Source: Euglena gracilis (lineage: Eukaryota). Taken from it: a DNA stretch of 64,000 bases. A program made the position numbers and the translations under genes. The stretch spans positions 12,146,716 to 12,210,715 of the forward strand of contig CP154954.1 of assembly GCA_039621445.1 (NCBI GenBank), in the 5' to 3' direction. Under the pieces are notes generated by a model. The model worked only from the letters and a program-made list of their open reading frames with translations, did no database searches and had not been told where the DNA came from. This document shows, piece by piece, positions 24,401-47,000 of the stretch; position 1 is the stretch's first letter; every line of letters begins with the position of its first letter.

Positions 24401-25356
24401 GAAATGCGCAGAAGTTGGCGCAGCCCACTTCACGCGCGTTTTTCAGCACACAGAAAGAGGACAGTGGGCGATTACCCACTTGAAAAGATCACAGAATTTG
24501 TCTCGTACTCCCTCGAGGAAAGCCGACCAGGGAGGAAGGGACACCGAGGGCCAAGCACAAAGACATTGTGAGGCCATGCCTTGCTCGCCGGCGGCCTGCT
24601 GTGATTTTTTGGTGCGCTGGGTTAGGAGGTCCCGCCAGAGTTGGCTGCATCGTCCCCGACGTGGCGACCATGGCGCTGTTTCTCTGCCCCATCTTCTGAC
24701 CGAGGGCGTTTGAAGACAAATTTTCTTATATGGGTGGGGGGGGATCGGGCTCACAATGTCTTTGTGCTTCGCCCTCGGTGTCACTTCCTCCCTGTCGGCT
24801 TGCCTCGAGGGAGTACGAGACACCTCGGGCTCCGCACTTTGCCATTGAGAGGCCAGATTGTGCACTGAAAAAAGGGGGGCCAGGACATTCTCCAAAGCAC
24901 CTTGGGCACCAAGTCTTTGATAATGGGCTGCGAAAGCCTCCACCCCCTTCGACTGACCAATTTCACAAACTTCTTGGGCAAAAAGGCCCAAGTTTTTGAG
25001 CAAACCAACTCCAGCCCCTCTCGGACTCCGGTGAAGAATGATACAGGAGGAAGGGACAGCGAAGGCGGAGCACAAGACAACAGTGAGGTCTTGCTCTTCT
25101 TTCCGGCTGTTGTTTGTGTTTTTGGTGTTGGTTGTGGTGTTTCTTACTGCGATGAGATGTCGGAGTAGGCTGACTCGGAGACGGTGTCGGACTTCTCGGT
25201 GGCTCGCGGTGGCGGGTTGCTGGCCTGTCTGTGGGTGAACTGAAATTTCTTGGGGGGGGGGGGCCTTAGCGACTTTTTTGTTCTTTTCCGGGTCGGGGGG
25301 GGGGGGGGGGCTCACTGTTGTCTTGTGCTCCGCCTCCGCTGTCCCTTCCTCCTGGA

Positions 25357-26330
25357 TCATTCTTCACCGGAGTCCGAGACAGCTCCGGCTCCGCACAAGA
25401 CCCCAGTGAGGCTTTGTGCACCTTTTTTTTGGACAGCAACCCCCGCCTGTTTACCCGCTTCCAACCGCAAATAATGGGAAGAAAAGGCCTGCACATTTTT
25501 CCATTTTCCAATCTGGCACACCTCCTCAGAGGACAAACCTGCCAGTTTATACATGTACACTCCTGCCCCCCTGGTGGAGTGGGGGGCCCACTGGGGGGGT
25601 ACCCCATGTTTATCCAACAATCGTATCGTCAAACTCTTAATGGTTTTGGCAGACAGAGGGGTAAAAGGGGGTTTTAGACTTAACAACAGAGGTCCCCCTG
25701 GGGGGGCACAGTGTGATGTCAAACTGACATATTTTTTCATGTTGAACCAGGGGCAAATATTGGGACATGAAGGAATCTGGGGAATTTCCTCCCACTGAGT
25801 CTGTCTCCAACCTTTTCTTTGGACAAGAACAAAAACCTTGCCATCAACCTGGGACACTGTCCTGAAGGTTCTGCTCAAGTCCACTGAACGATGCAAACAG
25901 ATGAGTCTGAAACTTAAAATGACCTGGTCTCTCAGATCACTGAGGAACTCTGGGGGAGGTGCTGCTGCCAATTTCTGAAAGTAATGACTCAGGATTCCAA
26001 AATGAAGAATACCTGGGGGTCGATGTGTTCCATTTTCTTTTGTAGGGGGCCAACAGGGGTAAAAACCTTAACATGTGAAACCCAGGAAGCTGTACCACAG
26101 CACTATAGGCATTCCTGGCTTGAGCCACACTGAAGGTGAAAATTTTTAATGATTCCAGAAGCGACTAATTCTGGGCTCATGGTGTCGAGGTCCATCTGGG
26201 ACATGGTCAAAACTCCCCACAGGAGTCTGAACGCAGAATCATATCTTGCCAAGGACAGATTTTGACTTAAGAAATTGTCAACCACTGAGGGGGGGATCTG
26301 TTGCTTCTGTAACAACTGCCTGACAATAAA
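25357..26330 (-). pseudogene. Tyrosine recombinase of DIRS element A (frameshifted)
   Basis: LICLHRSVDL (catalytic R), QRKG, PHSTRGAG (HxxR), IGKW, HYLRL (catalytic Y). Confidence 0.9.
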
Positions 26331-27923
26331 ATGCAGGCTAGATGCCATCTTGACTTTCTCATGGGCTGCCCGTGACAATTCTCGAACATGTGGTGGCAAG
26401 ACAGAATTCTCAGGGCTGGTGTGTGTGGAATGTGAAGTTTTATTAAAAGGGGCCACCACACAGCTGAAACCCACAGGGGGCAAATCAGAAGGCATTTTAG
26501 ACGTCTGTATTTCTTTAATCTCAGGAGCCACTGGCTCAGGACAGACCAGGGAGGGTTTGCATAAACCTCTGAGAACATGTCCAGAGGGCAGTTCAAACTG
26601 TCTGTGGCCACTGCCTGAAAAATGGGGCCATCGACTCACAAACTGAGAAAGTTTGTGATTCCCTGGTGATGCAAACATGTCCACAGTTGTGTTTATGAAT
26701 TGCTGGAAAATGTGCTGACTTTTTTGAAAATGAAAGGGTTTAAACTGTAATCCCCTGGGTCGAAGTGCCGTCTTCTGATGGCATCGCTTTTCATGCTTTG
26801 GGAGGGGGCCCAGTGAACTTGGAGGGTGATGCACATTTCCATACACCACTTGAGAAAGGGTCTGATGAGTTTGTTCAGGTGGGGTAGCCCCCCCCCCCCC
26901 TTTGAGAAGATAGTAGTAGGAAACTTTGTTGTCCACTGTTACGGACACTGTGTCCTTTTTCCTGGCCGAAGACCTTACAGTGGAGATGGCTGCGATCAAT
27001 TCTTTTACATTGATATGTAAATGAGAGTCTTTTCGCCAAAATTCTTGTTACTGGGTGCCAGCTTGTAGGTCCAGGCCTCCCCAACCAAATGTTGAACTGT
27101 CTGACTCCAGGTGTCTGGTGACTGGGCTTGGGAAGGGTCTCCCCCCCCAGGTCTGCAGAATTTCCCTGACATCTTGCAGTTGAGATTTGCCCTCCTCTGG
27201 GATTGGAACCTGATGATCCCAGCCAAATTTTTCTTGTAGGTTGACAAAACCTACCAAAGTGTCTGTGAATGCCCTGAGGAAGGGCAGCCCCACCAAGAAG
27301 CTTCTTATGCATCCCTAAATTGAGGCCATTTTCCTGCAACTGAGGGACTGGTGTGTGACTAAATTCCCCAGTTCCCTCCGAACCATTTTCAGTTTTTCTG
27401 TCCCCAACTGTAATTTTCCCTGTGCCAGATTGAGGTGGAATCCCAGATGTGGGATATTTTGGGTGGATTAAAGGATTGATTTTTCGCTGTTAATTTTGAA
27501 ACCCCCCTGCAGTAAATCTGCTAGCATGATGGCCAGGTGGTTGCTGACTTGCTTCTGACTGTCTCCTATCAGGGGGATGTCGTCCAGGTACACAAAGCAT
27601 AAAAGGCCTTTGGCCCTCCAACGTTTTTCCAGGCATTTCATTAGACTCATGAATTTTTCTGGCAGAACATTTAAACCAAAACAAGCTGCCTGGAATTCAC
27701 AGCATGTGTCTTCCAGAGTCATCCTCATGTAGGGTCTTAGGGTTGGGTTCAACATTAAATGAAAGTAGGCGTCCTTTAAGTCTACTTTCGCACCCCATTG
27801 TCCATTTTTCAGGTGCCTGAAGATGACCTGGATGTTGTCCAGTTTGAAGGGGTGTGGGGAAAAATGCTGGTTCAGCTGGCGACAGTCGCTGATTAAACGA
27901 TGTTTTTCTCCCTGAGGCTCTTT
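26330..27923 (-). pseudogene. RT (C-terminal part), RNase H and Dam-like MTase domain of DIRS element A
   Basis: HRLISDCR, VDLKDAYFH, CFGLN, VYLDD; ESDSSTFGWGG, VTVDN; VDMFASPGN, YANPPW, ICPLWVSAVWWPLL. Confidence 0.92.
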
Positions 27924-28356
27924 TGTGTACCAGGCAGCCATTCTGCCATGGCACTGTGTACCAGATACAATGGGTTACGGCCTACAATCTGGCTACGGCC
28001 GGGCTGTACACAGTGGCATGGTTAAACCATAAGACAAAGATAGAATCTCAGAGCTAGCGAAAGCTTAGCGAAAGTAACTGGTTCCTAATTCAAGGTTACA
28101 GGGTTTTTGTGCTTTGCAATTCTGTTTTAGAATTCTGAGGGCGAAGTCCCATTTGAATAGAAGTTTATTTTCTTTCTTTTACAAAGCTCGAAAGAGCAAA
28201 AGTCACTTTCATATAAGGGACTGCGGTCCCAACAATTCTATTTGCCTTTGTGCTTTGCTATCAAAGGGGAAAAGGGAAACAAATTTTATTGTTACTCCCC
28301 CCACGGGCTTTTCGGGAGGAAAGCATAAGTAGAAAAGCCGGGGTGGGACGTACACT
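27924..28356 (+). repeat. 5' LTR (433 bp)
   Basis: Direct repeat of 45141-45572; I see about 4 substitutions and 1 indel. Confidence 0.97.
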
Positions 28357-28576: not shown

Positions 28577-31500
28577 AATGCAAAGCACAAATGCGAACAA
28601 TGGAAACACACCTATTAACTATGCTTTGTTAACAGGTTCGCTTCGTGGACTGCAGAATGCAGACGAAGTCGCTACGGCGACAGAAAATTTTTCCTTACAA
28701 CGGGCGAATGCCCAAGTCGCTTTAGCGACAGAAAACTTTTATTCACAAGGGGGGGATGCCCAAGCCGCTTCTGCGGTGGAAAATTTTTCCGTACAAGGGG
28801 CGGAGGCTCAAGCCGCTTCGGCGGTGCCCCCCCCCCCACAACTGGGTTTTCGAACCCAAACCGCATTAGCGGTGCCCCCCCCACAACTGGGTTTTCGAAC
28901 CCAAACCGCATTAGCGGTGCCCCCCCCACAACTGGGTTTTCGAACCCAAACCGCATTAGCGGTGCCCCCCCCCCCTCTACAACAAGCCGCTTCGGCGGTG
29001 CCCCCCCCCTACAAGGGTCTTCGGACCCAAGCCGCTTCGGCGGTGCCCTCCCCCTCCAAGGGTCTTCGGACCCAAGCCGCTTCGGCTGTGCCCCCCCCTC
29101 CAAGGGTATTCGGACCCAAACCGCTTCGGCGGTGCCCCCCCCCAAGGGTCTTCGGACCCAACCCGCATTCGCGGACCCACCGTTAAAACAGCCGCATTTG
29201 CGGTGCAACATAACCCTACAATGGGTATACGGACCCCCTCCGCTTCTGCGGAGTCTGACTCACAAGTGGGCAGAATGCCCGAACGGGACTGGCAATTAGT
29301 GCCTTTTGGCACCCAATTGCCAACAGAGCCCCCCCCCCTTACGAGGACGGGTTGGAAACACCTTGTTTTTTCCAACCCCCCCCCCGGCCCTACCACCGGT
29401 AAGCCCCATTCGGGACTTGTCCCCCCCTCCACAATTGGCAGAAATCCCAGAACTACCTTGGTACGCTGAAATGCGGTTGGTGGTCCCGGACACTGCCGGT
29501 GTCATTGTTCCCATGGACAATGACCCCGAGGAAGACCGGGATTCGTTCTCCAGTAATACCGTTGAGCGCGTAGTCGCAAATTTACCGGGGAACCACCCAC
29601 TACAACAGCAATTTCGACACATCCAAGCATGTGTCCAAAATTGCGCTAAAACACTGAACCAAGTCCTACAATTTGATGAAGACAGTCACAAGGCCGTTTT
29701 CGGCAAGCTGGACTTCCTTTGGAAATACATCCAAGAATTTGGACAATTTTGCCAAAAGAATTTTAATTCCACTACAATGGACCTTCAGAACCTCCACCAA
29801 GGTTTTGACGCATTTTTACGCAACACCTTGGTACAAAACTTCCAACAAGTACAAGAGACCCTCCATACCGCGGAATCGCGTAATAACGCAAAATTTTCAC
29901 ATTTACAACAAAATCTACAACAACTGTTTACACAACTGGAAAATGTTTCTTATACAATGCAAGAAATGCAGTCCCGGTTACAACAACGGGATAAAGTGCC
30001 TACGGGTGCGGAACTTGGCTCATATGTCTCATATGAGCACTTTTCAAATTTGTCCAATGTTGTACAACAGTCCCAAGAACACATTTTGCGTTTGGGTGAT
30101 GAAAACGCGAGTTTTCATCAAAATTTTGCACAAATACGCGAAAACTATGTACAAAGAGCTTTTGCTCAACAACTGGAAGAGCGGATTGCTCGCTTAGAAC
30201 AAACCTCCTGCAAATGCGGTGAATTTTCCAACACTTTGACCACATTGCACACTCAAGTGGCGTAAATCGTGCATCGGCAGGATTTCCTCCATGAGAAGTG
30301 GCAAAACGACACACAAAAACTTGAAACTGCTTCCAATGCGCTACAAACCGCTACGGTGGAGCTCCAATCCCGCGATGCGGTGATTCTTAGCTTACAAACC
30401 GCGAATGCGGAACTCCAAGACCGAGAAACGGTCATAACTACCATCCAAACCGCGAATGCGGACCTCCAAATTGCGTTTGCAGACCTGAAAACCGCTTTTG
30501 CGGATGTTTCGGGACTACAAACTGCAATTGGGGACTTACAATGCCGCTTTGCGGAAACTTCCACCAAAAATCCCAGTATGGGAGCATTACGATCCACTGT
30601 AACCGATTTGCACAATCAGTTACAAGCGGACGTGAACAAAATCGAATCCGCGTTTGCGGATTTGCACAAACGGTGCAACGGTATTCAAAACTGAATTCCG
30701 GATGTCACCGGCATTGAAACCGCGCTTGCGGATTTGAATACCCAACACAAAACTCTACAATCCACCACTTCCCATTTACAAAAACGCGTACAAGCACTTA
30801 CTACAAGGGTCTCCGGACTCCAACCATCTTCGGATGGTCAACCGGTTCGCGACGTCGAACTACCCCTTGATTTTCGCACATTTTACGACCAAATGGTTGC
30901 GAAAAATCAGGAAAACTTACAAGATTTTTGTGAAACCTTGATGAAGACCAAAAATTCGGTCACCCAACAAGTTCTCACACTAAAAAAACAAATTTCGGTG
31001 TTGGAGAACCGACTTTCTACAATGATGGATGACAAAACCGCTGAAAATGCGGTATGGGTACCCCAACCCACGTTGGGTACCACAACCCCACAAACCGAGA
31101 ATCGGTTGAACGCCCTTACAACCGCCATGGAGACTTTGGTTAAGCGGGTCCAATTCTTGCACACCACTTTTACAAAGCTTTCCGCGGATTTTGACTCCAT
31201 TACTGACAAATTACCACTTTTGGATGAGTTACCCTCATACCGCAAACGTATTAAGCGTTTGCAGTGTGATGTTGAACGAATTTCAGACCTTTTCCAAGTG
31301 GTCGGTTCATTCGAACAAAGCATCCAGGATTTTGCATTGAGTTTAGATGAGATTCATGCAAAATCCTACAACCCCTCGCACTTTTCCCCTGAAAACCGTG
31401 TTTTCGGTGGTCAAAATGCAACTTCCAGCTCACAACGCGCTTTTCGCGCATCAACCGAAGCATCTTCGGATGCCCGACTTGCAACTCGCGACTTTGTGCA

Positions 31501-33375
31501 TCAAATTCCCGATTCGTTGGATGCCAATTCATCCAAAAGCGCAGTATGCGCACCCCTACAAGCATCTTTGGATGCGCATGCCCTACAAGCATCCACGGAT
31601 GCACGTGATCATGAACATGCCTACAATCGCGATTACAATCGCCCATTTATACCACAACTTAAGATTCCCCCCCCTAAGGGTGAATCTTCGGATGAGGAAC
31701 CGGTTTTTACCACAAAAACCGCGAATCCTCCGGTTTTACAACAAGTAATTCGCGAATCGGGACTGATTCGCGGTATGAGCCATACCCCTACCCCGGGTAT
31801 TGGCCATGGATCGCGAATGCGAAACACGGAATTTACCTCGGTTCCCCGATTTGTGGGTGAACAACGGGATTCCTATCCCCCTGGTATGTTACCACACCCC
31901 GAATCACGGAATCTCGACCCTTTACAATCCGAATCGCGGAATCGCGAAACACAACCATACAATTCGCGGAACTGCGACGTACCAAATACCCATGGTACCT
32001 ACGTAACCATGAGTACCATTCTGGATGCGCATTCGTACATCCCACCACAACAACCCTACAATAACAATTACGATGGAAATCGCGGCCCATAACGCGATTT
32101 CAAAGGTACCATTACAATTGCCAACAAGGTAAAACCACAATGAGACGGAGATCCCACAACTTGGAAACAATTTTGGCGCGACTGGACATACTACTGGGAC
32201 TTGAAGGGTCCAACCCAAGACGGGAAACCCCAGGTAATCAAAATGGAATTTATTGATTGCCTTCCCAAGGAAGAAAAAGATCGCGCCCGACAACTTGTGA
32301 TCCGGAATCGGATTACTTTTGATGAACTGGTTGACCAATATGTGTCAACCTGTTCAAGCCTAATTTCGCGAATTACGCTGGAGAAAAAATGGCGGCAATT
32401 CGCGCCAACGGACCGAAAATGGAAGTCAATCGACCTTTGGTATTCCAAATGGTTGGGATTGGCTTCTGAGGTTGATGAACTGGGTGAGAACCAAATGAAA
32501 GAACAATTCGATGCGGTTCTCCTCGATTTTCATTCCTACAATTATCAAGGACATCCACCGCGAGGAACTCGCGGACTACAAACTCACACTTGAACAAAGA
32601 TGGAACTATGTTTCCAAACAAATGAAACTCTCATAACTTTTGGGACAGATACAATCGGCTTACACCCACCACCCTACCGCCGGTCTCCCTAGCGGTACGG
32701 TAAGTGCCCTACAAAAGACTTCTTCTCCAAAATCCCCACGGGGATACGGTAAACATACAAACTCGCAAAGGGGAGATACAAAAACGCGCTATCCGCGCTC
32801 ATCTGACCAATCTACTGACAAAACTTGCTTTTTGTGCAACAAAGCGGGGCATACGTCCCGTGACTGCCCCCACCCTGATACGCGATAGCGGTATCAGAGT
32901 CCAAGGGGTTCACAATCCTCGCGGAGCTCGCGCTCCTCCGGATATTCGCACAAATCTATACAATCACAATCGTCGGGTTATCGACAAAGGTCCCGATCAC
33001 CGTTCCGCGACCGCGGACGCGATCGAGCACCTCGTGGTCGATCACCCCGACCCCCTTACAAACGTGATACAAATCGCGACTCATCGCGATCACGTTCACG
33101 AAGTGGATCAACTTCTTCGCGATCGTCATCCGGGAAACCGGGTTACAACAACCGTGGTCGAACGGGATTCCGTTCTCCAAGACCTCCAAGGGGTGAAAGC
33201 CCATCACAAAACCGACAACAATCACAAAACCGACAAAAGTGTTCCCTTTGTGGATCACACAACCACCACTCGTCCAAATGTTACCGCGCTCGCTCTCCCC
33301 GCCCGAACCAACGTCACCACAATGATACAAAACACAACAACAAACACAAGGTCGGGTTCAAAATCTCCTCTTTAG
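28577..33375 (+). pseudogene. Extended ORF1/gag: repeat-rich N-terminus, long coiled coil, gag core, two CCHC zinc knuckles; broken by stops and frameshifts
   Basis: ORFs 29306, 30269, 30734 and 32201 share one frame separated by stops; heptads LQTAxxxLQ; CFLCNKAGHTSRDC (32827-32868) and CSLCGSHNHHSSKC (~33240-33282). Confidence 0.8.
28660..29200 (+). repeat. Coding minisatellite, ~45-bp unit, ~10 copies
   Basis: QTALAVPPPQLGFRT / QAASAVPPP.KGLRT repeats. Confidence 0.9.
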
Positions 33376-33539
33376 AGGAGGGAACCCCAGCTTCGGGCGG
33401 GGAGGGGGATGAGAACTCCGAATCCTCGTTGGAGGACGACCGCAATGCGGTCCGTGCATTGCGCGCTATCTACTCACACAAGAAAACGATAAACAGCCGA
33501 AGTGCTGAATCGGACTTGGAGTAGGGGAGCCCGAGGTCT

Positions 33540-36500
33540 GTGGGCACGGACCTCTGGGCTGATGAACAGACGGAAGTAGGACCTGATCAACCTTACTTTC
33601 CCTGCCCATCTGCCTTTTTGGTCGGTACCCAGAAAATTTTCGGGTCCCCCACCCCCCACTCCAAATTTCTGCCTGGAATGCTGAGCAAAGTAGGAACGGT
33701 ATCCTGGAATAGTTGGAGAGACAACAATTTTACACCTGATCCTGCACTTTGCGTACCCCCCATGGAACTTTTGGTCCAAGCGGAAATCCGAACACAAAAT
33801 TTTTCTACCAAATGCAAAATTTTGGTCGACACAGGGTGTCGCATTCCCCTTCTCTTTCGAACGGGATTAATTCCCAACTCCTGCTTGGTAAAAGCCAAGT
33901 ACCCCATCAAAATTATGACTGCCGACAACAGCCCCATGTGTGGTGGTGACTTGGGATGCTTTTTGGACATACTCCTCCCCATCATCCACAAGCACCACTC
34001 ACAGCCCCCACACATACCAAATTTTCTGGGTACCTGGAGTTACGAATCGGGTATCCGCGGGTCTGACGTAATGTTGGGTTTTCCGTTCTTGCGTCAGAAC
34101 CGCCTTGTTGTGGACTGCCCCTCCCTCGGTTTGCGCACTACTTCACGCACACAACCCACACCACCGAAATTCTCCCCCAAGACATCTTCCCAGATGTCCC
34201 CCCGCCTATCCACAACGTTTTCTACAACCGAAAACACCGTTTCCTACACCAGGGGTAAAGAGAAAGCTGCCACCCTACCCACTACACTTTTACCGCACGT
34301 TTCCAATGCGGTAGGGAAAGCGAGTAGCTTAACCACCAACGTTTCACTGGGTTCCAAGGTGAAAGCCCAAAGGCCTGAAGTTATAACGGTGTCCAGTAGC
34401 CGCCCAGCTGCACAACTTTTACGTTTTCCACCAGGTGTGTCGATTTCGGACACCCCTGTACACCCCCCAGCAGCTACAACTTTCAACACCCCCATACACA
34501 CACTACACACGACTGACATGCACTACCAGACCGACACTTCCTTCCAATGCGCACATTGCCGGAGAATTTCCACACAACCTGATTTCGACTGTGGATGTAT
34601 TGTTGAACCTTCCAAACTAATCGCTTTACTCAACAACCAGAGTACACTTGGTACCCGGACCGGTATCGAGTATACCCTGCCCTCTGAACGAGAACACAAC
34701 ACACCGGAATGTTACCCGTTGTGTGTTGAAGTACATCGACAACTGGACAAACGCGGAATCGCGTCCCTATTCTGAATCGCCAGAATCGCACATGAAGACC
34801 TCCAATGGCAGAAAGCCAACCTTCCTGACCCCGAATGGCAGAATGCCAATCCTTCCAATGTCCCTGCATACAAGTGGCAGAATGCCAACAATAATTATCC
34901 TCCGTACAATACACCTGATACACTTGATACAATGATTAATGAAGAGTCTTCGGACACACCGCATTACCGATGTGGCTCGGCAAACTGTGTTTCAGCCCTC
35001 CACAGGACTGAAACTGCGACAGTTTTCGCGAACCGCAACTGGAATGCGTTAAATTTTGGACAATATCGCATTTTGGAAACTTGGTTTTCCAAAATTGCGC
35101 AAATCGCGAAGTCGATGGACCTACAATTGGAGATTGACACATTCTCGTCCAAAGCACATTCTCGTTTATCCAATTACTGGTCAAGCCGTACAAATGCGTT
35201 TGATAAGTTTTGGGGTGATGTGGTCCTGTGGCTACACCCACCTCTGAAACTTATCCCTCTTGTCGTCGACAAGATCCTTCGGGATCAAGCACGCGGTGTG
35301 CTACTCATTCCTATAAATCCCGAAGCGGAACGGTTCCAACAACTGACGTATGTCACTTTTCACTGGTGGGATTTACCGAATGACACCCCCTTGTTCGATG
35401 ATTTTTGCGGTGTCATGTTACCACCATTGAAAGAACTCATTTTCGTGTTTGTTTCTTTGATGCATTCGGAACTGTGGAGTACACTGACAAATTCCTACGG
35501 GACAAAGGTCAGAATGACCAAACATACCAACTATCCGCAGTGACAGAAAGCGGTGGTCAACACCCCAAGTCACAAGAACTATGTACAAAGATAAATCGCG
35601 AATTCAGTGATGTTTTAGAACATCCTATCTATGCCCATGACATAGATCCTGCAATTCGCGGACCTTTTGGTGTCTGTAAAATCGAACTCAAAGAAGGTGC
35701 ACAGCCCATGCACCGAAAATTCTTTCGCTGTTCAGGCGAAAGAGAACAAGCTCTCAACACAATGATCGAAAAACTGATTGAACGAAAATGGATCATACCC
35801 TCCAAAAGCGAGTGGACCTCACAAGCTTTTGTTGTGCCCAAGCCTCCCGATGCTTCTGGAGAGAAGAAGTGGAGACTTGTGCTGGATTACCGATACTTGA
35901 ACTCACAGACAAAAGACGATCCATTTCCGTTACCACTTATCGAAGACCTGATATATCGATTTTCGACTCTAGAGGATGGTTTTCAACAGATGCACTTACA
36001 CCCTGACTCACAAACGTAAACCGCATTTGTAACCTCCCGCGGAGTTTACCAATGGACGGTGTTACCAATGGGTGTTAAGAACGGCCCAGCCATGTTCCAA
36101 AGAACGATACAATGTATTTTACGAGACTTACCGTTTGCCGTTGTATACATTGATGACGTGCTGATTGGCACACCCCCTCCACTTACAAATTCGGGTAGTG
36201 ATATCCTTGATATTCACTACCGCGATATACGTTCCGTACTGACAACGTTTCAAAAACATCTGCTTTTCGTCAAAGGTGCGAAAATGCATTTGTTTCGCGA
36301 AACTATAAAATTTTGTGGACACATTCTTAACAACGGACAAAGGAGAGCATCTCCAAGCAAACTTGAAGCTATAAAGAAGTGGACACCTGAAAACATCAAG
36401 ACAATCACCCATCCAAAAGGATTTTTGGGTTTAGCGCAATATTACGTGATTTACATGAAGGATTTCTCAAAAATCGCGGTACCACTGACGCGGCAACTCA

Positions 36501-38240
36501 AAAATCGCGCTCCTGACAATACAAACATACAATGGGACGATACAATGCGAGAATCGCTAACGACAATTAAACAACTTATGTTGGACAACGTTGTACTTGA
36601 CATTGCTGACCCGTACAAACCATACGTACTGGAGGTCGACAGCAGCGACTATGCTGTCGGCGGTGTGTTGAGTCAACATAACTCGTCCAATGAACTGCGC
36701 CCTGTAGCATTCTTCAGCAGAAAGCTACAAGGTGAAGACGGAAAAGGACAAGTCAAATGGAGCATACGAGAAAAGGAGACGTATGCCATTGTCCTTATCC
36801 TACACAACTTCCGAAGTTGGGTCGCCAGTTCACTCGTACAAATACTTGTGTTGACAGACCATGAGACTCTCAAACACTGGTACACCGAAGACTTGAACAA
36901 AGCCATGTCCTCAGTTGGCCGAAGATGCCGATGGCACGAATTTTTGAGTCAATTCAACCTGGTGGTAGTTTACACACCAGGTCATACTCAAAAAGTCGCA
37001 GACCCACTTTCAGGTGCACCCTGACGAGGGTGATGCCACGTTTCACGGAAGTCGTGAAGCCGACGACGAAGCAAGGCGCGCAGACGCCGCTGACAACCTA
37101 CTTGACAGTTTTCCTGTCTCGCGGAATTGGCGGCGGATGCCGATAGCCCCCGTACGGGGAAAACGACAACACGGCAGAATGCCGGGCCCCCGCCGAGTTA
37201 CGCGATCAGAATCTCCATCCCCTCTCTTTTTTCGTGAATGGGATTATTCAAAGGATGATTTTTACAATGAAGTCGTACAAAGACTGCGTAATGGTGAATT
37301 CGTTGAGAATTATACCTTATCGCCTTTACGTTTGATTTTTCGGAATGATACTGGTTACAAGTACCGCATACCCTGTGACTTGTTTGATGACGTACGTTTA
37401 TGTTATCACAACCAAGGCCACCCTGGGGCCCCCAAACTTCTTTGGTGGGTCGCAGATACTGTACAACCCTGACCGAAAAAGATTTGTACAAGCGCTGTTT
37501 ACAAATTTCGCAACGGTGCCAAATTTGTCAAGCTGTGAAAACGCGCAGAGGTACCCCCCTGGTACGTTGGACTTCTTCCCCGTACCAAATGACATTTTTA
37601 CATCCCTCTGCATGGATTTTCTGGAACTTGAACCTTGCAAAGGAACAGATGACAAAACTTACGATTACATTCTTGTTGTCGTCTGTCGGCTGAGTGGGTA
37701 CATCGTAGCCATTCCATGCTAGAAAGCAGGGTTGACAGCACAAGTTTTGGCACAAATGTTTTCAGAAAGATGCATTTGCCTCATGGGTTTACCGAATGAA
37801 ATCGTGAGTGATCAAGACCATTTGATTTCTTCTCGATTTTTTACAACTCTTTGCGGTTTACTCGGAATTGAGCAGCATTTTTCTATCATTTTTCGTCCAA
37901 AAGGCAATGGTCGCGCTGAAGCAGCAGTTAAAGCTGTAGTCAACATGCTACGACTTTCACTGGCCGAATCGCACAATGCCTGGCTACAAGTATTACGCTG
38001 GTGTTTATTTTATATCAACACTTTACCGGGTCTGATATTACAATACTCACCGTACAAAATCGTCTTCGGACGAGACCCCCTAGCCATGGGCGACATCCCG
38101 TCAGAACGACCCGCTCGTTCTCGCGTGAGTTGCGAAACATGGTTCTCTGAAGTAGAAACCTTGCGCACGGATGTGCAAAAGCGCGTAGTCGCTATAAAAA
38201 AAAAAAAAAAAAAAACAAAAAAAAAAAAAAAAAAAAAAAA

Positions 38241-38276
<36 letters not shown>

Positions 38277-38737
38277 ACAATACAAACCAAAGACAATTTT
38301 TACAACAGTACAAATCACCGATATACAACCCAGGTGACCGCATGTGGGTTCGGAACAGTAGAACCCGCATGCAATCCACGAAGTTGGACCCCCTCTGGAT
38401 CGGACCATGTGAGATCCTCGATCGGTTGGGTACAAGTGGGCGCTATAAAGTCGCTTTACCCAACGGGGTCGAGGATGTACACATGGATGACTTCAAACCA
38501 TACCTGACTCCACCAAACGGTAAAGCAATACCCTGCCTCTACTTTAAACCACGGTCAAAACTGCCTGAAACAGATGATTTTGTCGTTGACAAAATTCTCG
38601 ACCACAAAGTAGACCGGGGTATAAATTACTGGAAGGTGAGGTGGAAAGGCTATGGTCCCGCAGAGGACACTTGGGAACCTGCAACTCGTTTTGTTGGTTA
38701 TATCCAACAAGACTGGAAACTATGGAAACAACATTGA
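33540..38737 (+). pseudogene. Gypsy pol: aspartic protease, MTase-like insert, RT, RNase H, integrase, chromodomain (disrupted)
   Basis: ILVDTGC (33820); [117 protein letters not shown] (38578-38680). Confidence 0.93.
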
Positions 38738-39077
38738 CATTTCTGTAAATACCTTCTAATGGATGATGTACAAAGATGTCCAAGATTTGTCCATAGCATG
38801 GACTTTCAACAAAATGTATAATGGGCGGATGCCAAAATGTATAATGGGCGGATGCCAAACCATTTTGTCCCTAGCGAGGGACTTTTCGCTAAAGGACTAC
38901 GGTCCTGAGTCGTGCATTTTTACACTTGGAGCTACAATTTTGATTTTACAATAAGTGCAAACATACAAATATTTTTGTGTGTGTGCACACTTGCTCGCAT
39001 GCGTACAATGTTACCGTACAATGCCTTACTTCTGTTTCCCCACAGCTCAGTACTTGCTCTTATTTGCTGTTTTTCAA

Positions 39078-42000
39078 GATGGATACTGGAGGAAGGGGAC
39101 CTGGTCCCCCATCCTCCCAACCGTATGTTCCCCCTGGATAATCTCCTACGGGAGGACCCCCTCACCCACAACCTCCTTCGGGAGGACGAGGACTTGCACT
39201 CCCTCGTGGAGGGCAAGTCCCCGTTCGGCATGTACAAGCTGCTTCGGCAGCAAGGCCCGTAGTGGCAGCCCCTCAGGTACAAGCTGCTCCGACAGCAAGG
39301 CCCGTAGTGGAAAATCCCCCTGTGACTCAACATGCGGTTCCGCATGTTGCCCCAGAACAAACTACACTTGGTGGCATACAATCTCAACCTATGATTCCAC
39401 AACAAACGGAATCTGCCTATGAACAGTATGCCACACAACCAGAACCTCCACAAAGGCAGTATGCCGCTCCCGTTATGCCTCGGTTCCCCAAGTACATAGA
39501 TGAACTGACAACGGCTTCAACAGATACAATTCGTAACGCTCTGCGCAGGTGCGCAGAGGACAGACCGGATCCCTTCATCCGAGTGATATGGGATTCGTAC
39601 TGCCGACAATTGCTTGCAATCACCAACAAGCCTATCGCCACCTGGGACATGTGGTCCCAGAGTACGATAGCAGGTAGAATCTTCTTCCAACCCGGAGAAT
39701 CCGGATTTCCAGACAACGTAACCCTCAGGGACCTGGGAGTCCTGGTTCCGCCTGTGCTCCGCGGAGTGCACCCAGTGGGTGATTACGCGGAACACATGCG
39801 CCGCTATACTCCTGAACTCACAGAAAGTGAGATGGGTGATGTCCAAATGCAAGAACCAATATACTTACCACAACAACGTTTTTCCTCTCCCCCACGCATG
39901 CCGCCTACCCGGAACTGGGAGGCTGGTATGCAATCACAATACGCCATGGAGGCCGAAGAGCCATACGATGAAAACTATACCGACGAGATGGCCGAAGAGC
40001 CTCATGACGAGTATACCACGGCAGAACCTGAGCCGGAGTATACCATGGAAACAGACGAACCATCTCAACCAGCCCCTCAACCACCACAACCCGTACAAAC
40101 TCAACCATCTGTACAATCTCAACCGCAACCACCGACAACCCCCGCCGTACCGCTGCCGGAACCGACAGCGATACAGGTTGTCGGAGAAAACTCCCTGCGT
40201 CCCGTAGTGGACAATATTAACTATGAACGAGTACCACAATCTGCGGATTTCGCTTATACAACCAAAGGCGAACAATACCTTCCCCTTGACAAAATTTACG
40301 AACTTGGATCACATTTGGGAGCCATCAACGTAAAAGGAGTGATAATGGATGGCATTGGTCCAAACTCCAACTTTTTGGGTATACCCACCTGGGCACTACC
40401 CGAAGTTTTGCGTGTGAATGCACCACCACCTCTACCTGGTCCAATGGAACAACTCGCTTCGGCGTCGAATCTTGTGCCGCCAGTAGCTCAACCTACTCCG
40501 GCACCACAAACAAAACCGGTACAAGCAGTTTCGACTGCACAGTAAACATCTACTCCGCCTGCCGCATCAGCAGCAGGTTCAAACCAACCTGTACCTATAC
40601 AAAGAACAGGACCCCCTGCTCAAGCCGCGCAGTCGGCACGTGCAAAAGCACCCGCACAATCTACAATTCCTGTTCGAGCACCTCCTGTCACAAAACATTC
40701 ACAACCGGCTTCGGCTGGACAGACACAACCACCTGTTGCACCGGGACAACCTTTCTCGGGTCAACCCAGGTTTGAGTCGCCAGCACAACGCGCCACCTAC
40801 AAGGAAGCTCTACAACATTTGACGGCACCAGCAAAACAATACAACGCGTGGACCGGAGTTTGCGACACCACCACAAACACGTCCAACGCCAGACACACAA
40901 CGTCGTCGTTTGGACGACGCCCCACAAAGCGCGCAGGCGCAACGTGATCGTCAGGAAAACGATGACCTGCCGATCCCGCCCAACGCAACGATCTTAATAC
41001 GAAATGTATCACCAACTGCGTCCAGACAAACCGTCCGATGACATTGCTGGACATTACACCGCTGGTGTAACCGTTACAATGTGGAGAAAAACACGAGCAT
41101 TCCGAAAAGACGGTGCATACCGTTGGAATGAACAAGAGCGCGAAGCCGCAAAAGGACAGAAAGGCCAGAAAGGCAAAGGAAAGAGCGAAGGCTCACAACC
41201 GGGTTACGACCTGGACGTACAATTCATGATTGACCATCTGTTCTGGATCTCAGACGGTTGTGATACAATTATGCACGAGTACTATGAGGAACAACACCCT
41301 TGGGTTGTTGCTCCTGAAGTACATCACCACATGGTCAAACTCTACAAGGAAAACGCCCGTGGCTTTTTCTTCGATGGTACAATTTCCTGTTACGAAAGCC
41401 AGGATGGCATCGACAATTTGCCGGGTTTCTGGCAACTACTTTTCTGGCTCGTATTTCATTGCTTGAACTTCGGTTCATTTGCAATGCCCGCCAGCAAAGC
41501 GCATTACTTGCCACATCCAAAGCTACAATACGGATGGGAATCATCCCTTGACGCACTGAAGACAATGTTCGACAATATCCGAGAAATCGGACCACAGGGC
41601 ATACAATGGGAAGTATTCCCACTTCCAAAGGATATACAATTGGTGACACACGAAATGTTCTGTTACAATTACCACATTTTTCAACGAATATTACGGCCCC
41701 CACTTCCAAGTGGTCGGAATCGACCTGACATACCCACAAAAATTTGTCGTTTGGTGCACCCACTGCCTCCACAAGTTCCCCATGGACTTCTGGGGCTTTG
41801 GTGTGCGCGGTCGCACAACCGACCGCCCAAACGCACAAAGGGCGCAGCCCCACCAACGTGAATGGGCGGAGGCCCAACAACAACGACGACTACTCGGACA
41901 CATCTGCCACAATCCCCTCGAAGTTAGGGAAATCGGATACGCCAGACAAAACCACCGACAAATGCTTCTGCACATGCAGACGTTCCAATGGAGAACATGG

Positions 42001-44621
42001 GTGTCCTATGCTCTGGAAATGTACAATTTATTCAATCCAAAACAACAACTCCCACAAGAACACCTCCCTCTTCCACCTGAATGGGACGAAGACGGCAAAC
42101 GGAAGTACATCAAACGCCTGTTTGGCGAAACTCTCCGAAGAGAGGACTTTGCCCCATTTTTCAAGGGCAAACGTACAAATAAGGATGGATTGGCCATCCC
42201 AATACTGGACTGGCTTCCTCGCGGATCGGGAGGAAACAAATTTGTCGGATGGCAAAACTTCCGTCTGCGACCACGTATAAAACTCCCTGAACCCCAGCCG
42301 GCGGAGTTCGAGGCAGCACAGTCTGCAGTTCAACAACCTACAACGGCTGAATCATCTACAACGACAACAGACAAAGCAGCAGCGAAGCCTGCAACCAAAC
42401 GTTCGGAAGAACGTTTGCCACAACCTCCACCTACACCTACAAGTCTGTGGAACACACTCCCGTACACTCTTCAGACTCTTCGTCTGTTTCCTCTTCTGCG
42501 TCATCCAGTGATGAGGAAATGGAAGAAGGGACAGACAATGAACACAGTACACGCTCCGTCTCCTCCGCATCTGTGGAGTCTGAACCCGGTGATGCCGGCG
42601 TACAACATGCTCTAAGGCCCGAAGTGCCAGCTACAACGCCTGCTCAAACACGACCACAAACACCATTACCATACGCGGAACCTGACGCGCCTACAGAATT
42701 TACAATGGCCGAAGTGCCTGCAGACTACAACGGCCGCAGCGCCTTCGGCAGACGTGGTTCCACCTACTCCCGCACATGCGGAAGCCGGACAGGAAGCAAC
42801 TGATGCTGAGATAATCGCATTTCGCGAACTGATCACAAGACAACAACGGGAAGGTATCGCAAGATACCAAGACCCCGACGACTTTATACTCATACCACCA
42901 CAAGTCGGACGCGCTGCAGAACGCGTCCGAAGTGCCGTAGCCTCGATGGTTGCAATGGTGCGATCGAGGTCTTCCTCTTCAACGCGAAGTCCCCGTGACA
43001 CGAGACTTGGCAAAAAACCCACACAAGAAGCTACGGCTTCCACCACAGCACTGGCAGCAGACGCGGCCAGTTCTATTCCTGATGTCCAAACACCCGAAGT
43101 GGTGACAACCACGGAAGCGCCTTCGGTCGAAACAACACCACCACATGATATAACACCCGTAGTGGTACACACACCTGAACAGGTGGTACCGACGGCTCCT
43201 GACGTACCACCTACCACCACACCAACGGTCAAACCTGCTCCAAAGACTCCTGCAAACGGGCCCTTTCCGCCACAGCGGAAAGAAAAAGGCAGTAAGCCTA
43301 AGGCTAAACCACAGCCTACAGAACCGTGCAAACCTGCTGAACGACACAACGAGCCAAAACCACCTCCACCTGGGAGTAGTAGCAAATAAGGAAAGCGGGC
43401 GAAGACCCCAGCTGCTACCACACCAGCACCAACATAGACCGAAGTGGCCGGGGAAAAGCCGGGTCACTTAAAACACTCCGAGGTAGAACTCGACAAGATA
43501 CAACGTCTGAGACCTCGCAAGAGGAAAACATGCCGGTTGACGATAATGCCACCCTTTGGCGAGAGGACATTATCTCCAACCTGCCGAGCGTCGAAGAACG
43601 CATTGCCATGATACAATCAGCCCGCGAACGCGGAATTTTGTTGAACAAGTGGATTGAACCACTCTTCTTCAACGACCAGAAGCATAATTACTATGTTCGC
43701 CATATTTGGCGATTCTACAATGCCTGATCACCAAGAGTGTTTGCCCAATATCTTGGGGAAACATTCCTGTTTGACAATAGGCCGAATGGCCAAACAACTT
43801 GGCTCTGTACTGTCTGTCACAACATTCGTAACAGCATGCCAGCTGTGCATGTCTGTTATGCAGACAACAAACGGAAAAACTTTCACCACAATGAGTTCGT
43901 TCCAAACACAGCCGCTCTGATTTGCGGTGATTGTCTCCTTGCCTGGAGACAACTGAACAACTTCCGGTGGTCGGAAGGAGACAGAGACCGGGACGTACCA
44001 GTTTTCTGTGTCAACTGCCTACGGGCAGACATATGGTTGCCCGCAGATGGCGGACATCTCAAGATCGTACCCGGAAACGAGGACGTTCTGGAAGATTTCC
44101 TGAATTTCTACAGAACAAAACGACAAATGTACCAACACAAAAGCTTCAAGAAAGCTGAGGCTTTTGACCGCGGCGGAATCGCCTTTGACTTCCAAACTGA
44201 TTCCGGCGGAATCAGACTTGCTGTGGAATGTACAAAAGGGCGATTGCCCATACTCTTCAATGATGACGACTGGAAACGAGTCATTTACCCACTCTTTACA
44301 AAGCCTTCAACGGTTTCTGAAACCACACAACGATGGTTATTGCCTGACTATCCACCTGAACGACATGGTTACGAACATTGTTCAGAATGGGTTGGTACCA
44401 TTCTGAAACCACACATAACCCGCTGTGCCTGTGCATCCCGCGCGCACAACGTTGATTTCAACGCTCTGCCTGGGATGCCACCACAGGAACCAGCAAACCA
44501 TCCAAGATGGAACTATTACATATGGCCTGCAACTTTTCCGAGAGTTTTCTGGGAAAATTTGCAGATTTACCTCCACAAGCGAGCTGAAACGCTCAAAACC
44601 GAACTGCCCAAGGAAATATAA
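39078..44621 (+). pseudogene. Large extra sense ORF (~1800 codons when joined) between integrase and 3' LTR; unknown protein with Pro/Gln/Thr linkers and Cys/His-rich domains
   Basis: Consecutive + ORFs 39262-40545, 41004-41861, 41710-42615, 42754-43389, 43530-43727 and 43737-44621 with the same A/C-rich codon style as pol; WCTHC, WLCTVCH, LICGDC, VFCVNC, RCACxxxxH. Confidence 0.75.
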
Positions 44622-45130
44622 GAAGTCAAAAGTTGGGTTCTCCCACGGATCAACACGGATGATCCCGACAAGGATACCCTAGACTTACGTCCAACCGAAA
44701 TGACCTTGGTACAAGACCCACACGGGTGAGTACTTCAAGGAAACCCGCAAACGTTGAGGGTTTCCTGCCTCGTACAATCAGCTACGGCTGAGATGGGCGT
44801 AGTCCCACATAATGAGCGAAGTCTCGAGCGTGAATACGCACTTCATCATCGCGTTCAACACCGTTTCAAGACCCTGTGGCGGAATCGCCTTAAGTTCGGT
44901 CGATAACATGTTGATCGCGAAGATTCAAGACTACAAAGACACAACGGTGTCAAGTAAGAAGACGCACAAAGCACAGCATGCGAGCCAGAATTCTTTTGCA
45001 CTTTGTGCTCCAAACATGGTAACCGTAATTAGGAACCAGACCATGGTATCCTGGTACTGTCTCCCTGAACCTGGGACTGTGCCTGGCATCCCGACTGGCC
45101 TGGTCCAGAAGGGAAATCGGGCAGAGCCCT

Positions 45131-45140
45131 GGGAGGGGGA
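45131..45140 (+). promoter_or_regulatory. Polypurine tract
   Basis: GGGAGGGGGA abutting the 3' LTR. Confidence 0.85.
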
Positions 45141-45572
45141 TGAGTACCAGGCAGCCATTCTGCCATGGCACTGTGTACCAGATACAATGGGCTACGGCCT
45201 ACAATCTGGCTACGGCCGGGCTGTACACAGTGGCATGGTTAAACCATAAGACAAAGATAGAATCTCAGAGCTAGTGAAAGCTTAGCGAAAGTAACTGGTT
45301 CCTAATTCAAGGTTACAGGGTTTGGTGCTTTGCAATTCTGTTTTAGAATTCTGAGGGCGAAGTCCCATTTGAATAGAAGTTTATTTTCTTTCTTTTACAA
45401 AGCTCGAAAGAGCAAAAGTCACTTTCATATAAGGGACTGCGGTCCCAACAATTCTATTTGCCTTTGTGCTTTGCTATCAAAGGGGAAAAGGGAAACAAAT
45501 TTTATTGTTACTCCCCCCACGGGCTTTTCGGGAGGAAAGCATAAGTAGAAAAGCCGGGGTGGGACGTACACT
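45141..45572 (+). repeat. 3' LTR (432 bp)
   Basis: Direct repeat of 27924-28356. Confidence 0.97.
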
Positions 45573-47000
45573 TCTTTTTTGGAGATTACAAACCAAGGGA
45601 TGGTGTGTTGGGTACCTTCCCAGGGGACTGGTTTTATGGCTCCTGCCTGAAAATAGTCTTGTAAAATACTTTTTGTCTTTTGTATTTCCACCTTTGATTT
45701 TGGTATGGAACATGTGCTGAGGGAGCCCCCTGTGTGATGAGTTGCAACACCCTGGGGGGGGCAACCTTTTGCCACCATTGCAGCTGGTCCTGAAGCCTCT
45801 GAAACAGAGGCACTCCCAGAAAGTGCTCCTCTGTCAGCAGCACCACGGTGATCTGTTCCACAGATCTCAAGCTTGCAGCTTCCCACAGCCTGCAGATGTC
45901 TTGGCTTCTGCCCCTCAGGGCTGGTTGACTTTGTGGCACAATGCCCAGCTCTGGCGGACACAATGTCCTTTTGGGACTTGATGAGTTCTGATCTGAAAAG
46001 GAAGGAGCAATACTTCCTGGCAAGGTGTTGGGCAAACCATTTTCCTCCTTAGGACTTGCCTTTGCCTTTGGGGCCAGACCGCCATGGTCTCGGTTGTCAA
46101 TTTGTTTGCCATTGCTTGAACTTCCACCCTTTTTCACCTGTGGAGGTGGGAAAGTGCCACATGGGGAACTCACCCCTGAAGTGGGATTTGATACCCTCTT
46201 TGTTGATGCCAGCTTGGGCTTTGGCCATTTTGATGTCTTCAGGGGTGAACAGGCCATTTCCTTGCTGTATGGTCTGAGGGATGCTTCTCCTCTTCCTCTC
46301 CTTGACAATGTCTCCTTCACATATTTGTTGGCTCAAACCCAATACGTTTTCAGGGGCTCCTTGTAAGGTGCAGTGCAGCGCTGCCAAGATACGTAGTATA
46401 TTCAAGAACTTCTGCTGGACTGCACACACGGTGCGGTCATACCCACTCTTACCGTCTTCACGGTGGTTGTTTTCCTCCGCTTTCGGCTTCAGGGTCTTCC
46501 AGGTGGGTATCTGTTCCAGCAAACTTCGTACGTCCAACCGTAAGTCCCCAGACTGTACCTGTGTCCATATCCTCTCCAGGTCCCCCGGCAGTGCCTCCTC
46601 GGCCGTCTGCCAGGGGAAGTCCTGGGCTTCCTCCGCCGCGCGCGCTGCCTCCTCGTCGCGATCCATCTCCGCCGTCGTCGTCGTCGTCGTCGTCCACTTC
46701 TCGTACAGCTTGAAGGCCACGTCCGACGCCTTGTCGCTTAGCTCCAATGACGTTATCGAGACGTTCTTAGTGAGAGCAAAGCTGTAAAGGTAAGCCGCCA
46801 GATATGGTTGTAGGGTAGACTCCACCATAGCCACTCCAGTGAGCTTCCGTACGGCAAGGGCACATCGGGTTGTTTCCCACCCTGCTCCAGTCCACTTCTG
46901 ACCTGAACCAATCGTGGCCATCACAGCAGTAGTGACGGCATCTCGCAAAAAGGCTGTTGTCAGTTATTCTTGTAAGAAAATGTTGCTCCACGCCGCTTCG
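45573..47000 (-). pseudogene. ORF1 (gag-like) and RT N-terminus of DIRS element A
   Basis: 283-aa ORF 46097-46948 next to the ITR; KSILQDYFQAGAIKPV..QHTIPWFVISKKE continues at 27923. Confidence 0.85.

Follow-up and report, generated by a model that had tools for sequence, protein, structure and literature searches.

A non-canonical Dam/DIRS-type methyltransferase-fold domain in the Pol polyprotein of a giant chromovirus-like Ty3/Gypsy retrotransposon of Euglena gracilis

In retrotransposons of the DIRS1 type, the methyltransferase domain described by Goodwin and Poulter (cited through PMC5890265) lies after RNase H, in elements that carry a tyrosine recombinase. Iyer, Zhang and Aravind (2016; PMC4738411) placed this domain in the PCIF1 clade, considered all of its copies likely inactive, and suggested that it binds element transcripts or mimics PCIF1. 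In May 2026, Fernandez-Moreno et al. (bioRxiv; 10.64898/2026.05.21.726589) described, as a first, Dam-like domains (DAMs) in non-DIRS long terminal repeat (LTR) retrotransposons; they distinguished five such DAM-LTR lineages, some with chromodomains, inferred repeated transfer from DIRS, and found Asn-Pro-Pro to be almost universal in DAMs. When DAMs of transposable elements were expressed in E. coli there was no gain of N6-methyladenine (6mA), and in Euglena and two ichthyosporeans the DAM-LTR insertions carried more of it. In that work DAM-LTRs are associated, though not by definition, with hosts that encode AMT1 and have 6mA in their genomes. Our full-text literature searches for adenine methyltransferases in LTR elements gave nothing before that preprint. 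Another kind of epigenetic enzyme is likewise found in pol in SymbioDIRS-Dnmt3, SymbioLINE-Dnmt and the DNMT-bearing retrotransposons of charophytes (PMC5890265; the last are called Gypsy-DNMT3 by Fernandez-Moreno et al.), for which an action on cDNA was proposed, but these are C5-cytosine methyltransferases with an unrelated catalytic domain. Here we describe a giant chromovirus-like Ty3/Gypsy retrotransposon with a DAM in its Pol, found in a stretch of 64,000 nucleotides of the Euglena gracilis assembly GCA_039621445.1 (contig CP154954.1, positions 12,146,716 to 12,210,715, forward strand), hereafter the window, from whose first base all coordinates are counted.

The original prediction, made from the letters of the window alone, had proposed a DIRS-type adenine-methyltransferase-like domain inside a Gypsy pol, between the protease (PR) and the reverse transcriptase (RT), and both the nature of the domain and its position were borne out. 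Indeed, the Gypsy peptide blocks quoted in its support all lie in one plus-strand frame, in the open reading frame (ORF) 34776-35543, and the profile alignment of the DAM (Table 1) spans residues 74-228 of this ORF and then continues in ORF 35402-36019. ORF 34776-35543 shares its frame with the upstream protease ORF 33525-34775, from which it is separated by a single in-frame stop at 34773-34775. Near 35440 the reading passes to the frame of 35402-36019 and 36020-37024, which holds the last strand of the DAM (FRVCFFDAFG), followed by RT and RNase H.

Protein searches over near, longer and shorter ranges gave one close copy, 89% identical, which we call P0001 (more distant relatives are numbered in the same way). 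P0001 has 1208 amino acids, being truncated by both ends of its 4.6 kb contig, and contains in a single open frame the Dam, RVT_1 (E 4e-27), RT_RNaseH and Integrase_H2C2 (residues 1074-1134) domains; it reads through both the stop at 34773-34775 and the frameshift of the window copy. It is colinear with the 1594 amino acid P0017 over 1047 columns at 37% identity, and also with other pols. Thus a second copy of the family carries the segment, and the DAM is an integral, inherited, in-frame part of the Pol polyprotein of this Gypsy element. P0001 joins a DAM and a Ty3/Gypsy-type RT in one polyprotein, an order that in the window is broken around the domain by only one stop and one frameshift, and since the DAM lies in frame in a chromodomain-bearing Ty3/Gypsy Pol, the element is a DAM-LTR retrotransposon with its DAM just upstream of RT.

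We also considered that a DIRS fragment might sit inside this one Gypsy copy, through a nested insertion or an assembly chimera. There are DIRS copies on both sides, and the Gypsy element is itself nested in a DIRS element; but the segment lies on the Gypsy strand and in the PR frame, P0001 has it in one ORF with RT, RNase H and integrase (INT), many relatives are colinear, thousands of contigs span it continuously with its flanks, and its identity to the domain of the local DIRS amounts to only about 20%. We give this explanation almost no credence: a fragment landing in a single copy is ruled out by the P0001 ORF, the colinear relatives and the low identity to DIRS.

The abundance of the family was apparent when contigs of two DNA runs of one organism were placed on positions 34600-35700 of the window. 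On these 1.1 kb there were 4289 and 3614 contigs, so the family is extremely abundant, and 14 DNA runs of the same organism contain at least half of the sampled words from this interval. The stop at 34773-34775 is absent from nearly all of the contig depth; beside the frameshift, a one-base length difference occurs in only part of the depth, and many contigs diverge from the window copy there. A leaf-litter metatranscriptome run and another presumed RNA run held 5 and 6 related contigs, at most 99% alike and three of them under 90%, which could come from carried-over DNA or from a related family and were not counted as expression. A scan of metagenome contigs with P0001 peptides gave 36 pattern matches, none of them confirmed. 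As a separate observation, the differences between the window copy and other copies over 34600-35700 are strand-asymmetric, with 29 C>T against 8-9 G>A and a balance of T>C (16) and A>G (14-15); the asymmetry is larger than the C excess of the strand would explain.

The homology of the domain is carried by profiles. When the P0001 domain was used as phmmer query against 1.84 billion representatives, 479 proteins were found at E<=1e-3, 91 of them at E<=1e-10. Among the best 150 of the 479, Pfam Dam (PF05869) matches 109 at E<=0.01, with 62 reaching its cut-off (hand count), and there is no Pfam Dam match in the remaining 41. We built a query-free profile from 31 relatives, each of which passes the Pfam Dam cut-off, and searched it against 1364 ORF pieces: it matched the window ORF at E 4.7e-41 and reached the methyltransferase pieces of two DIRS copies in the window, 26635-26270 at 1.2e-7 and 48404-48051 at 8e-4. 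Pairwise BLASTP of P0001 against these two pieces found nothing significant, so only profiles link the Gypsy DAM to the DIRS domains of the window. Aligned with the second DIRS copy, the Gypsy DAM is identical at 20 of 102 positions (about 20%). A search of PDB sequences with the domain and with a 65-sequence profile returned no chain at E<=10, and the ESM Atlas returned only eukaryotic clusters (score 0.90), in one of which 14% of the members carry PF05869; we took this as a lead only. What the segment encodes is a genuine Dam/DIRS-type domain of methyltransferase fold, from a PF05869-positive family.

The DIRS strings that the original prediction had set block for block beside those of the Gypsy element are real, but they stem from two minus-strand DIRS copies and not one, with a frameshift among them: VDMFASPGNHKLSQF, YANPPW, CLLICPLW and MFENCHG occur at 26684-26270 with the frameshift in between, and DYSLDPQLF..DAL at 48404-48051, in the second copy, where motif IV reads YANPPL. 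The two kinds of domain belong to the same family by profile, and common to the DIRS1-type and Gypsy versions are the blocks D-x-F-[AS]-S, (N/H)PP, K, a P-loop strand and an F..G..R..F tail. The DIRS domain comes after RNase H; in the present element, which has LTRs, a target-site duplication and a DDE-type integrase, the domain stands ahead of RT. The suggestion that the domain was transferred between retroelement orders agrees with the phylogenies of Fernandez-Moreno et al., but at about 20% identity the neighbouring DIRS copies were not its source.

As read from the sequence, the coding order of the element is PR-DAM-RT-RNaseH-INT-chromodomain, and PR-DAM-RT marks a widespread lineage. Four of the best 150 of the 479 relatives show a protease-like match followed by a DAM (P0003, P0016, P0028 and P0084, of which only P0084 has a protease match that passes its cut-off), in ten a DAM is followed by RVT_1 (P0006, P0017, P0022, P0025, P0029, P0048, P0051, P0065, P0093 and P0134), and in four the DAM comes after RNase H (P0131, P0135, P0139 and P0147). 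The order had been thought an oddity for an LTR element, a view overtaken by this lineage and by the DAM-carrying LTR elements already in print. Like the latter, the present element is of Ty3/Gypsy type and has in pol a Dam-like domain related to the DAMs of DIRS; it also has the chromodomain of some of their lineages and a five-strand sheet with flanking helices. The text of the preprint gives the order for only one lineage, in which the DAM lies between RT and INT and not, as here, between PR and RT, and the words 'protease' and 'Copia' are absent from that text.

The same best 150 relatives include Copia-type pols (RVT_2) in which a Dam-like domain lies between integrase and RT, namely P0096, P0107 and P0132. 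P0107 also has gag_pre-integrs and a retroviral SH3, P0132 has rve, and P0096 passes the Pfam Dam cut-off. Because 'Copia' does not occur in the text of Fernandez-Moreno et al., these may be an unreported class of DAM element.

The assignment of the host element to the chromovirus-like Ty3/Gypsy group rests on RVT_1, RT_RNaseH and Chromo following one another on the plus strand, that is, the RT-RNaseH-INT order with a C-terminal chromodomain. Its paired LTRs, its TCTTT duplication, the integrase zinc domain of P0001 and the SH3_Tf2-1 of the window are those of an LTR element; it differs from a DIRS element, which makes no target duplication and has a tyrosine recombinase, in its duplication of 5 bp, in its DDE-type integrase region and in a DAM that lies before RT. 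A C5-cytosine methyltransferase in the same element, the mark of an EpiLTR (DAM, DNMT and chromodomain together; Fernandez-Moreno et al.), was not found in the ORF pieces scanned, all of at least 70 amino acids: there was no DNMT match at E<=0.01 in 10 pieces from 38.9-45.2 kb, nor at E<=0.1 in 11 gag-pol pieces.

The fold was predicted with AlphaFold (AF2) on the P0001 version of the domain with a 65-sequence alignment. The model has a predicted local distance difference test score (pLDDT) of 86.7 and a predicted template modelling score (pTM) of 0.79, with alternating strands and helices; a single-sequence run gave a pLDDT of 34.5. A VIA-align search of the model against 48,161 solved chains, for which the tool states a background Z of 7 to 8, gave PCIF1 as best match (Z 10.8, root mean square deviation 2.6, 126 residues aligned), followed by PH1948 (10.1), METTL5 (9.2), DIMT1 and KsgA (8.6), T4 Dam (8.3), M.TaqI (8.1) and E. 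coli Dam (7.9). The top 50 rows were nearly all S-adenosylmethionine (SAM) methyltransferases, among which adenine-N6 enzymes took ranks 1, 3, 8, 12 and 20, and in Foldseek PCIF1 was the sole match at E<=1e-3 (E 7e-4). On this predicted model the domain has the class I (Rossmann-like) SAM methyltransferase fold, and its closest solved fold is that of the cap adenosine-N6 methyltransferase PCIF1. As to kinship with PCIF1 rather than with prokaryotic Dam, PCIF1 leads structurally by only about 1 Z unit, and there is no sequence match.

This resemblance raises the question of whether the domain, like PCIF1, is directed at RNA, so that it would bind or methylate the 5′ end or the body of its own transcript, or mimic PCIF1 at RNA polymerase II. 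PCIF1 is the top structural match in both aligners, weak Pfam PCIF1_WW matches occur in a DIRS piece of the window and in P0067 and P0117, the placement of DIRS1 methyltransferases in the PCIF1 clade came with a proposal of just these roles (PMC4738411), and the assays of transposable element DAMs on DNA were negative (Fernandez-Moreno et al.). However, the family profile finds no PCIF1 chain in the PDB at E<=10, the structural lead is small (Z 10.8 versus 10.1 and 9.2), the trees of Fernandez-Moreno et al. group the DAMs of transposable elements with prokaryotic Dam, and no WW domain was seen among the element ORFs scanned. PCIF1/CAPAM (PDB 6irw, 6irx) is moreover a cellular RNA enzyme, unlike this element domain, with which it shares the fold but not a detectable sequence match or a WW domain. 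Taken by itself, we regard an RNA-directed role as unlikely.

What sets the domain apart is its motif IV. HPPL follows the fourth strand of the AF2 model (E88-91), and in class I methyltransferases motif IV follows the fourth strand. Where (D/N)PP(Y/F/W) is expected, both the window and P0001 have HPPL, as against NPPF in PCIF1. The motif had been recognized from the start as non-canonical, which is confirmed, but P0001 shares it, so that HPPL is not a decay private to the window copy; no alternative letter was seen at 35235-35246 among the best 40 of 117 contig variant rows. HPPL is therefore probably a family trait and not the decay of one copy. Elsewhere the domain is well preserved: seven query positions that are at least 90% conserved (D59, F61, W84, W90, P94, K104 and P117) are all intact, and EIDTFSS at 35130-35150, which we take to be motif I, retains its conserved residues (Table 1).

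Over an alignment of 151 domains, the column that holds the H of HPPL is mostly N, with NPPF alone accounting for 49; among the 96 longer sequences, motif IV begins with N in 67, with H in 16 and with C in 8, the remaining 5 having some other residue. A FastTree phylogeny of the DAM (LG+gamma, midpoint-rooted, 96 tips, 132 columns) placed the pair of the window and P0001 as sister to P0002 (NPPI; support 0.91), in a clade of 14 tips (support 0.98) where NPP-I/V/L predominates. The stacking aromatic was therefore lost before His replaced Asn in this family. A separate clade (support 0.996) has His in all eight tips (P0056, P0063, P0077, P0103, P0110, P0112, P0120 and P0148, most of them without a Pfam Dam match), six of which read HPPD or HPPN, and in another clade, of 11 tips (support 0.73), eight have Cys (P0024, P0027, P0031, P0033, P0044, P0045, P0059 and P0099). 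In both the His and the Cys clades, good conservation is seen in the domain blocks other than motif IV. Fernandez-Moreno et al. report Asn-Pro-Pro in nearly every DAM, whereas this family is His-Pro-Pro-Leu, and what is new here is a probably fixed non-canonical motif IV in an abundant, recently inserted family, a finding that the separate His and Cys clades reinforce.

A degenerate key motif could mean that the domain is a functionless relic, drifting and carried along because of its place in the pol frame, flanked by two essential domains. With the nearest relatives it shares 43-45% identity, about half the 82-84% of RT, and the single-tip variants YPPI, HPMF, NPHY and NPTL in the same clade resemble decay. 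Against this, the seven conserved residues outside the motif are intact and the AF2 model is confident; with the distant P0017 the identity of the DAM (44%) is near that of RT (48%) and RNase H (50%), in the DAM tree the family does not have a visibly longer branch than its neighbours, and the domain stays colinear across pol divergence down to 36-37%. We therefore consider drift without function a poor explanation, and the least probable of those that accept the domain as a regular part of Pol.

We favour the reading, to which we would give a probability of roughly 0.72 as a whole, that this is a genuine, inherited DAM in a Gypsy Pol which, with its HPPL, is no longer an efficient methylator and is kept for binding. 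For the last part alone, that the HPPL domain has ceased to be an efficient adenine methyltransferase and is kept as a binding module, the odds are about even. The domain would be made with Pol and packaged with RT, so that it would meet the RNA of the element and its nascent cDNA. At motif IV, the Asn that would contact the amino group of the target adenine is His here, and the aromatic that would stack on adenine is Leu, a position that is already aliphatic in the surrounding clade. Because both key residues are changed and the rest is conserved, binding appears likelier than methylating. The domain may thus be retained as a module that binds the cofactor or nucleic acid, much as METTL14 is beside METTL3, and such a module would help the element to handle its RNA or cDNA, or the adenine-methylation machinery of the host. 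METTL14, with EPPL and no stacking aromatic, is inactive and kept for binding and scaffolding (PMC5023411); it too has a methyltransferase fold with a degenerate motif IV, but it belongs to the MT-A70 family and offers an analogy of mechanism only, and the domain of transposable elements is not known to have a partner enzyme.

The alternative closest to published work is that the domain is, despite HPPL, an active N6-adenine methyltransferase which methylates the cDNA or an RNA:DNA intermediate before integration, so that new copies would arrive in chromatin with a permissive mark. This is the model of Fernandez-Moreno et al., who report enrichment of 6mA and of expression on DAM-LTRs. The original prediction had suggested that the domain perhaps marks or protects cDNA. 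Neither the fold nor any other conserved residue has been lost, the family is abundant and the window copy a recent insertion, and clades with His or Cys have lasted while conserving the remainder of the domain, as if such residues were tolerated in a working site. However, the hydrogen-bonding Asn has been replaced and so has the stacking aromatic, the inactivity of METTL14 has been attributed to loss of the aromatic (PMC5023411), and the E. coli assays of Fernandez-Moreno et al. were negative even for canonical DAMs. We hold an active enzyme to be improbable, to about the same degree as an RNA-directed domain; both are partly compatible with the reading that we favour.

Several points weigh against that favoured reading of a domain kept for binding. 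A residue-by-residue reading of HPPL comes from just two copies, the window and P0001, and a minority of copies could bear Asn and possibly be the active ones. The His could still accept a hydrogen bond from the amino group of adenine, and Fernandez-Moreno et al. found more 6mA on DAM-LTR insertions in three species and argued that the pocket is preserved. With P0006 the DAM is 43% identical and RT 84%, which fits drift without function, and the window copy is itself broken by stops and frameshifts. The Pfam Dam match of the window ORF (E 0.0039, 17.3 bits) stays under the gathering cut-off of 28.1 bits, as does that of P0001 (E 0.00078, 19.6 bits), and the structural Z scores of 8 to 11 are just moderately over the tool background of 7 to 8. 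Beyond this family, it is possible, though we put it forward tentatively and at less than even odds, that retrotransposon DAMs in general are not, or not only, DNA adenine methyltransferases, and that their selected function is non-catalytic binding or an activity on another substrate; the 5′ end of the element RNA comes to mind because the fold is PCIF1-like.

The features of the element and its surroundings are collected in Table 1. The element is 17,649 bp long (17.6 kb) and nested inside a DIRS element, as follows from the LTR pair, the shared TCTTT flanks and a DIRS RT ORF that is continuous across both outer flanks: on the minus strand, the sequence outside the LTRs is one DIRS reverse-transcriptase ORF (...WFVISKKE / KEPQGEKHRLISDC...), which matches the second DIRS copy. 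The two LTRs are 98-99% identical to each other. A primer binding site begins with TGG, and TGGTAGCAGAA and GGGAGGGGGA sit where, and look as, a primer binding site and a polypurine tract should. Between them, the order on the plus strand is gag-like ORF, CCHC knuckles (two), PR, DAM, RT, RNase H, integrase, Tf2-type SH3, chromodomain and some 6.2 kb of further ORFs.

Table 1. Features of the Gypsy element and of the DIRS copies around it, in window coordinates
Feature	Position	Strand	Remarks
Target-site duplication TCTTT, left	27919..27923		identical 5 bases directly outside both LTRs
5′ LTR, 433 bp	27924..28356	+	direct repeat of 45141-45572
Primer-binding-site-like TGGTAGCAGAA	28357..28367	+	immediately after 5′ LTR, read from sequence; no tRNA matched
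Gag-like long ORF, coiled-coil rich	29300..32593	+	one frame, three in-frame stops; gag by position only
Two CCHC zinc knuckles	32826-32867 and 33240-33281	+	motif scan
Protease region, LVDTGC at 33822-33839	33525..34775	+	motif and position; in-frame stop 34773-34775
Dam/DIRS-type methyltransferase-fold domain (DAM)	34995..35490	+	profile alignment; frameshift private to this copy near 35440
Motif-I-like EIDTFSS	35130..35150	+	D and F at least 90% conserved in family
Motif IV position HPPL	35235..35246	+	relatives NPP-F/W/Y or NPP-I/V/L
Reverse transcriptase, YIDD at 36146-36157	35540..36330	+	in-frame stop 36017-36019
RNase H	36533..36955	+	Pfam RT_RNaseH_2 and RT_RNaseH, E about 2e-23
Integrase, zinc-binding part and core, frameshift-broken	37365..38150	+	approximate coordinates; colinear with P0017 and P0029
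Tf2-type SH3	38333-38488	+	Pfam SH3_Tf2-1 E 2e-6
Chromodomain	38579-38686	+	Pfam Chromo E 5.8e-10
Further long ORFs inside element, about 6.2 kb	38900..45130	+	without any known family
Polypurine tract GGGAGGGGGA	45131..45140	+	immediately before 3′ LTR
3′ LTR, 432 bp	45141..45572	+	direct repeat of 27924-28356
Target-site duplication TCTTT, right	45573..45577		adjoins 3′ LTR
DIRS element split in its RT by Gypsy	24443-27923 and 45578-about 47200	-	halves continuous across 5-bp duplication
Second, decayed DIRS copy	47273-50289	-	own methyltransferase piece 48404-48051

Within the coding region, the first CCHC knuckle matches Pfam zf-CCHC at 26.2 bits, over its cut-off, and RVT_1 matches 36038-36328 at E 4.9e-13. 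The protease region gave no Pfam protease match, so its assignment rests on motif and position. The Pfam scan found no rve match in the window itself; Integrase_H2C2 is carried by P0017 and P0029, and P0029 also has rve. In the 10 ORF pieces of at least 70 amino acids scanned from 38.9-45.2 kb there was no convincing Pfam family. The split DIRS element holds RT, RNase H, the frameshifted methyltransferase with YANPPW and recombinase-like ORFs, and a Pfam scan of 36 ORFs of at least 130 amino acids outside 24-50.3 kb of the window found no family.

Some further peculiarities of the element were seen. The gag-like ORF is unusually long, at about 1100 codons, with weak Pfam matches of coiled-coil type. 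Just inside the 5′ LTR, at 28812-29146, a unit of about 45 bp occurs five times in tandem-like fashion and reads in one frame as PPPQLGFRTQTALAV-type repeats (reported as 119-nt overlapping repeats). The integrase C-terminal region has a long A-rich run at 38150-38290, translated as poly-Lys (KKKKKK...). The ORFs downstream of the chromodomain are mostly in one frame and partly P-, Q- and T-rich, and are either an extra coding region or older nested material.

LTR retrotransposons with an adenine-methyltransferase domain have been in print only since 2026, so this element adds a member to a young group; its novelty as an element has been overtaken by the DAM-carrying LTR elements of Fernandez-Moreno et al. 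The motif variant, in turn, bears on what the DAMs of retrotransposons do, given that heterologous assays were negative and that the DIRS versions had earlier been called inactive. A family of thousands of copies with His-Pro-Pro-Leu, together with whole His and Cys clades, amounts to a natural experiment on the role of methylation: if that role were plain adenine methylation, the HPPL, His and Cys variants would not be expected to last while the remainder of the domain stays intact. The HPPL- and NPPF-bearing relatives are concrete natural proteins for comparison at the bench. If the non-catalytic or other-substrate reading is true, it would settle the choice between the view of 2016, of a PCIF1-derived, inactive domain, and that of 2026, of a prokaryotic Dam whose pocket is preserved.

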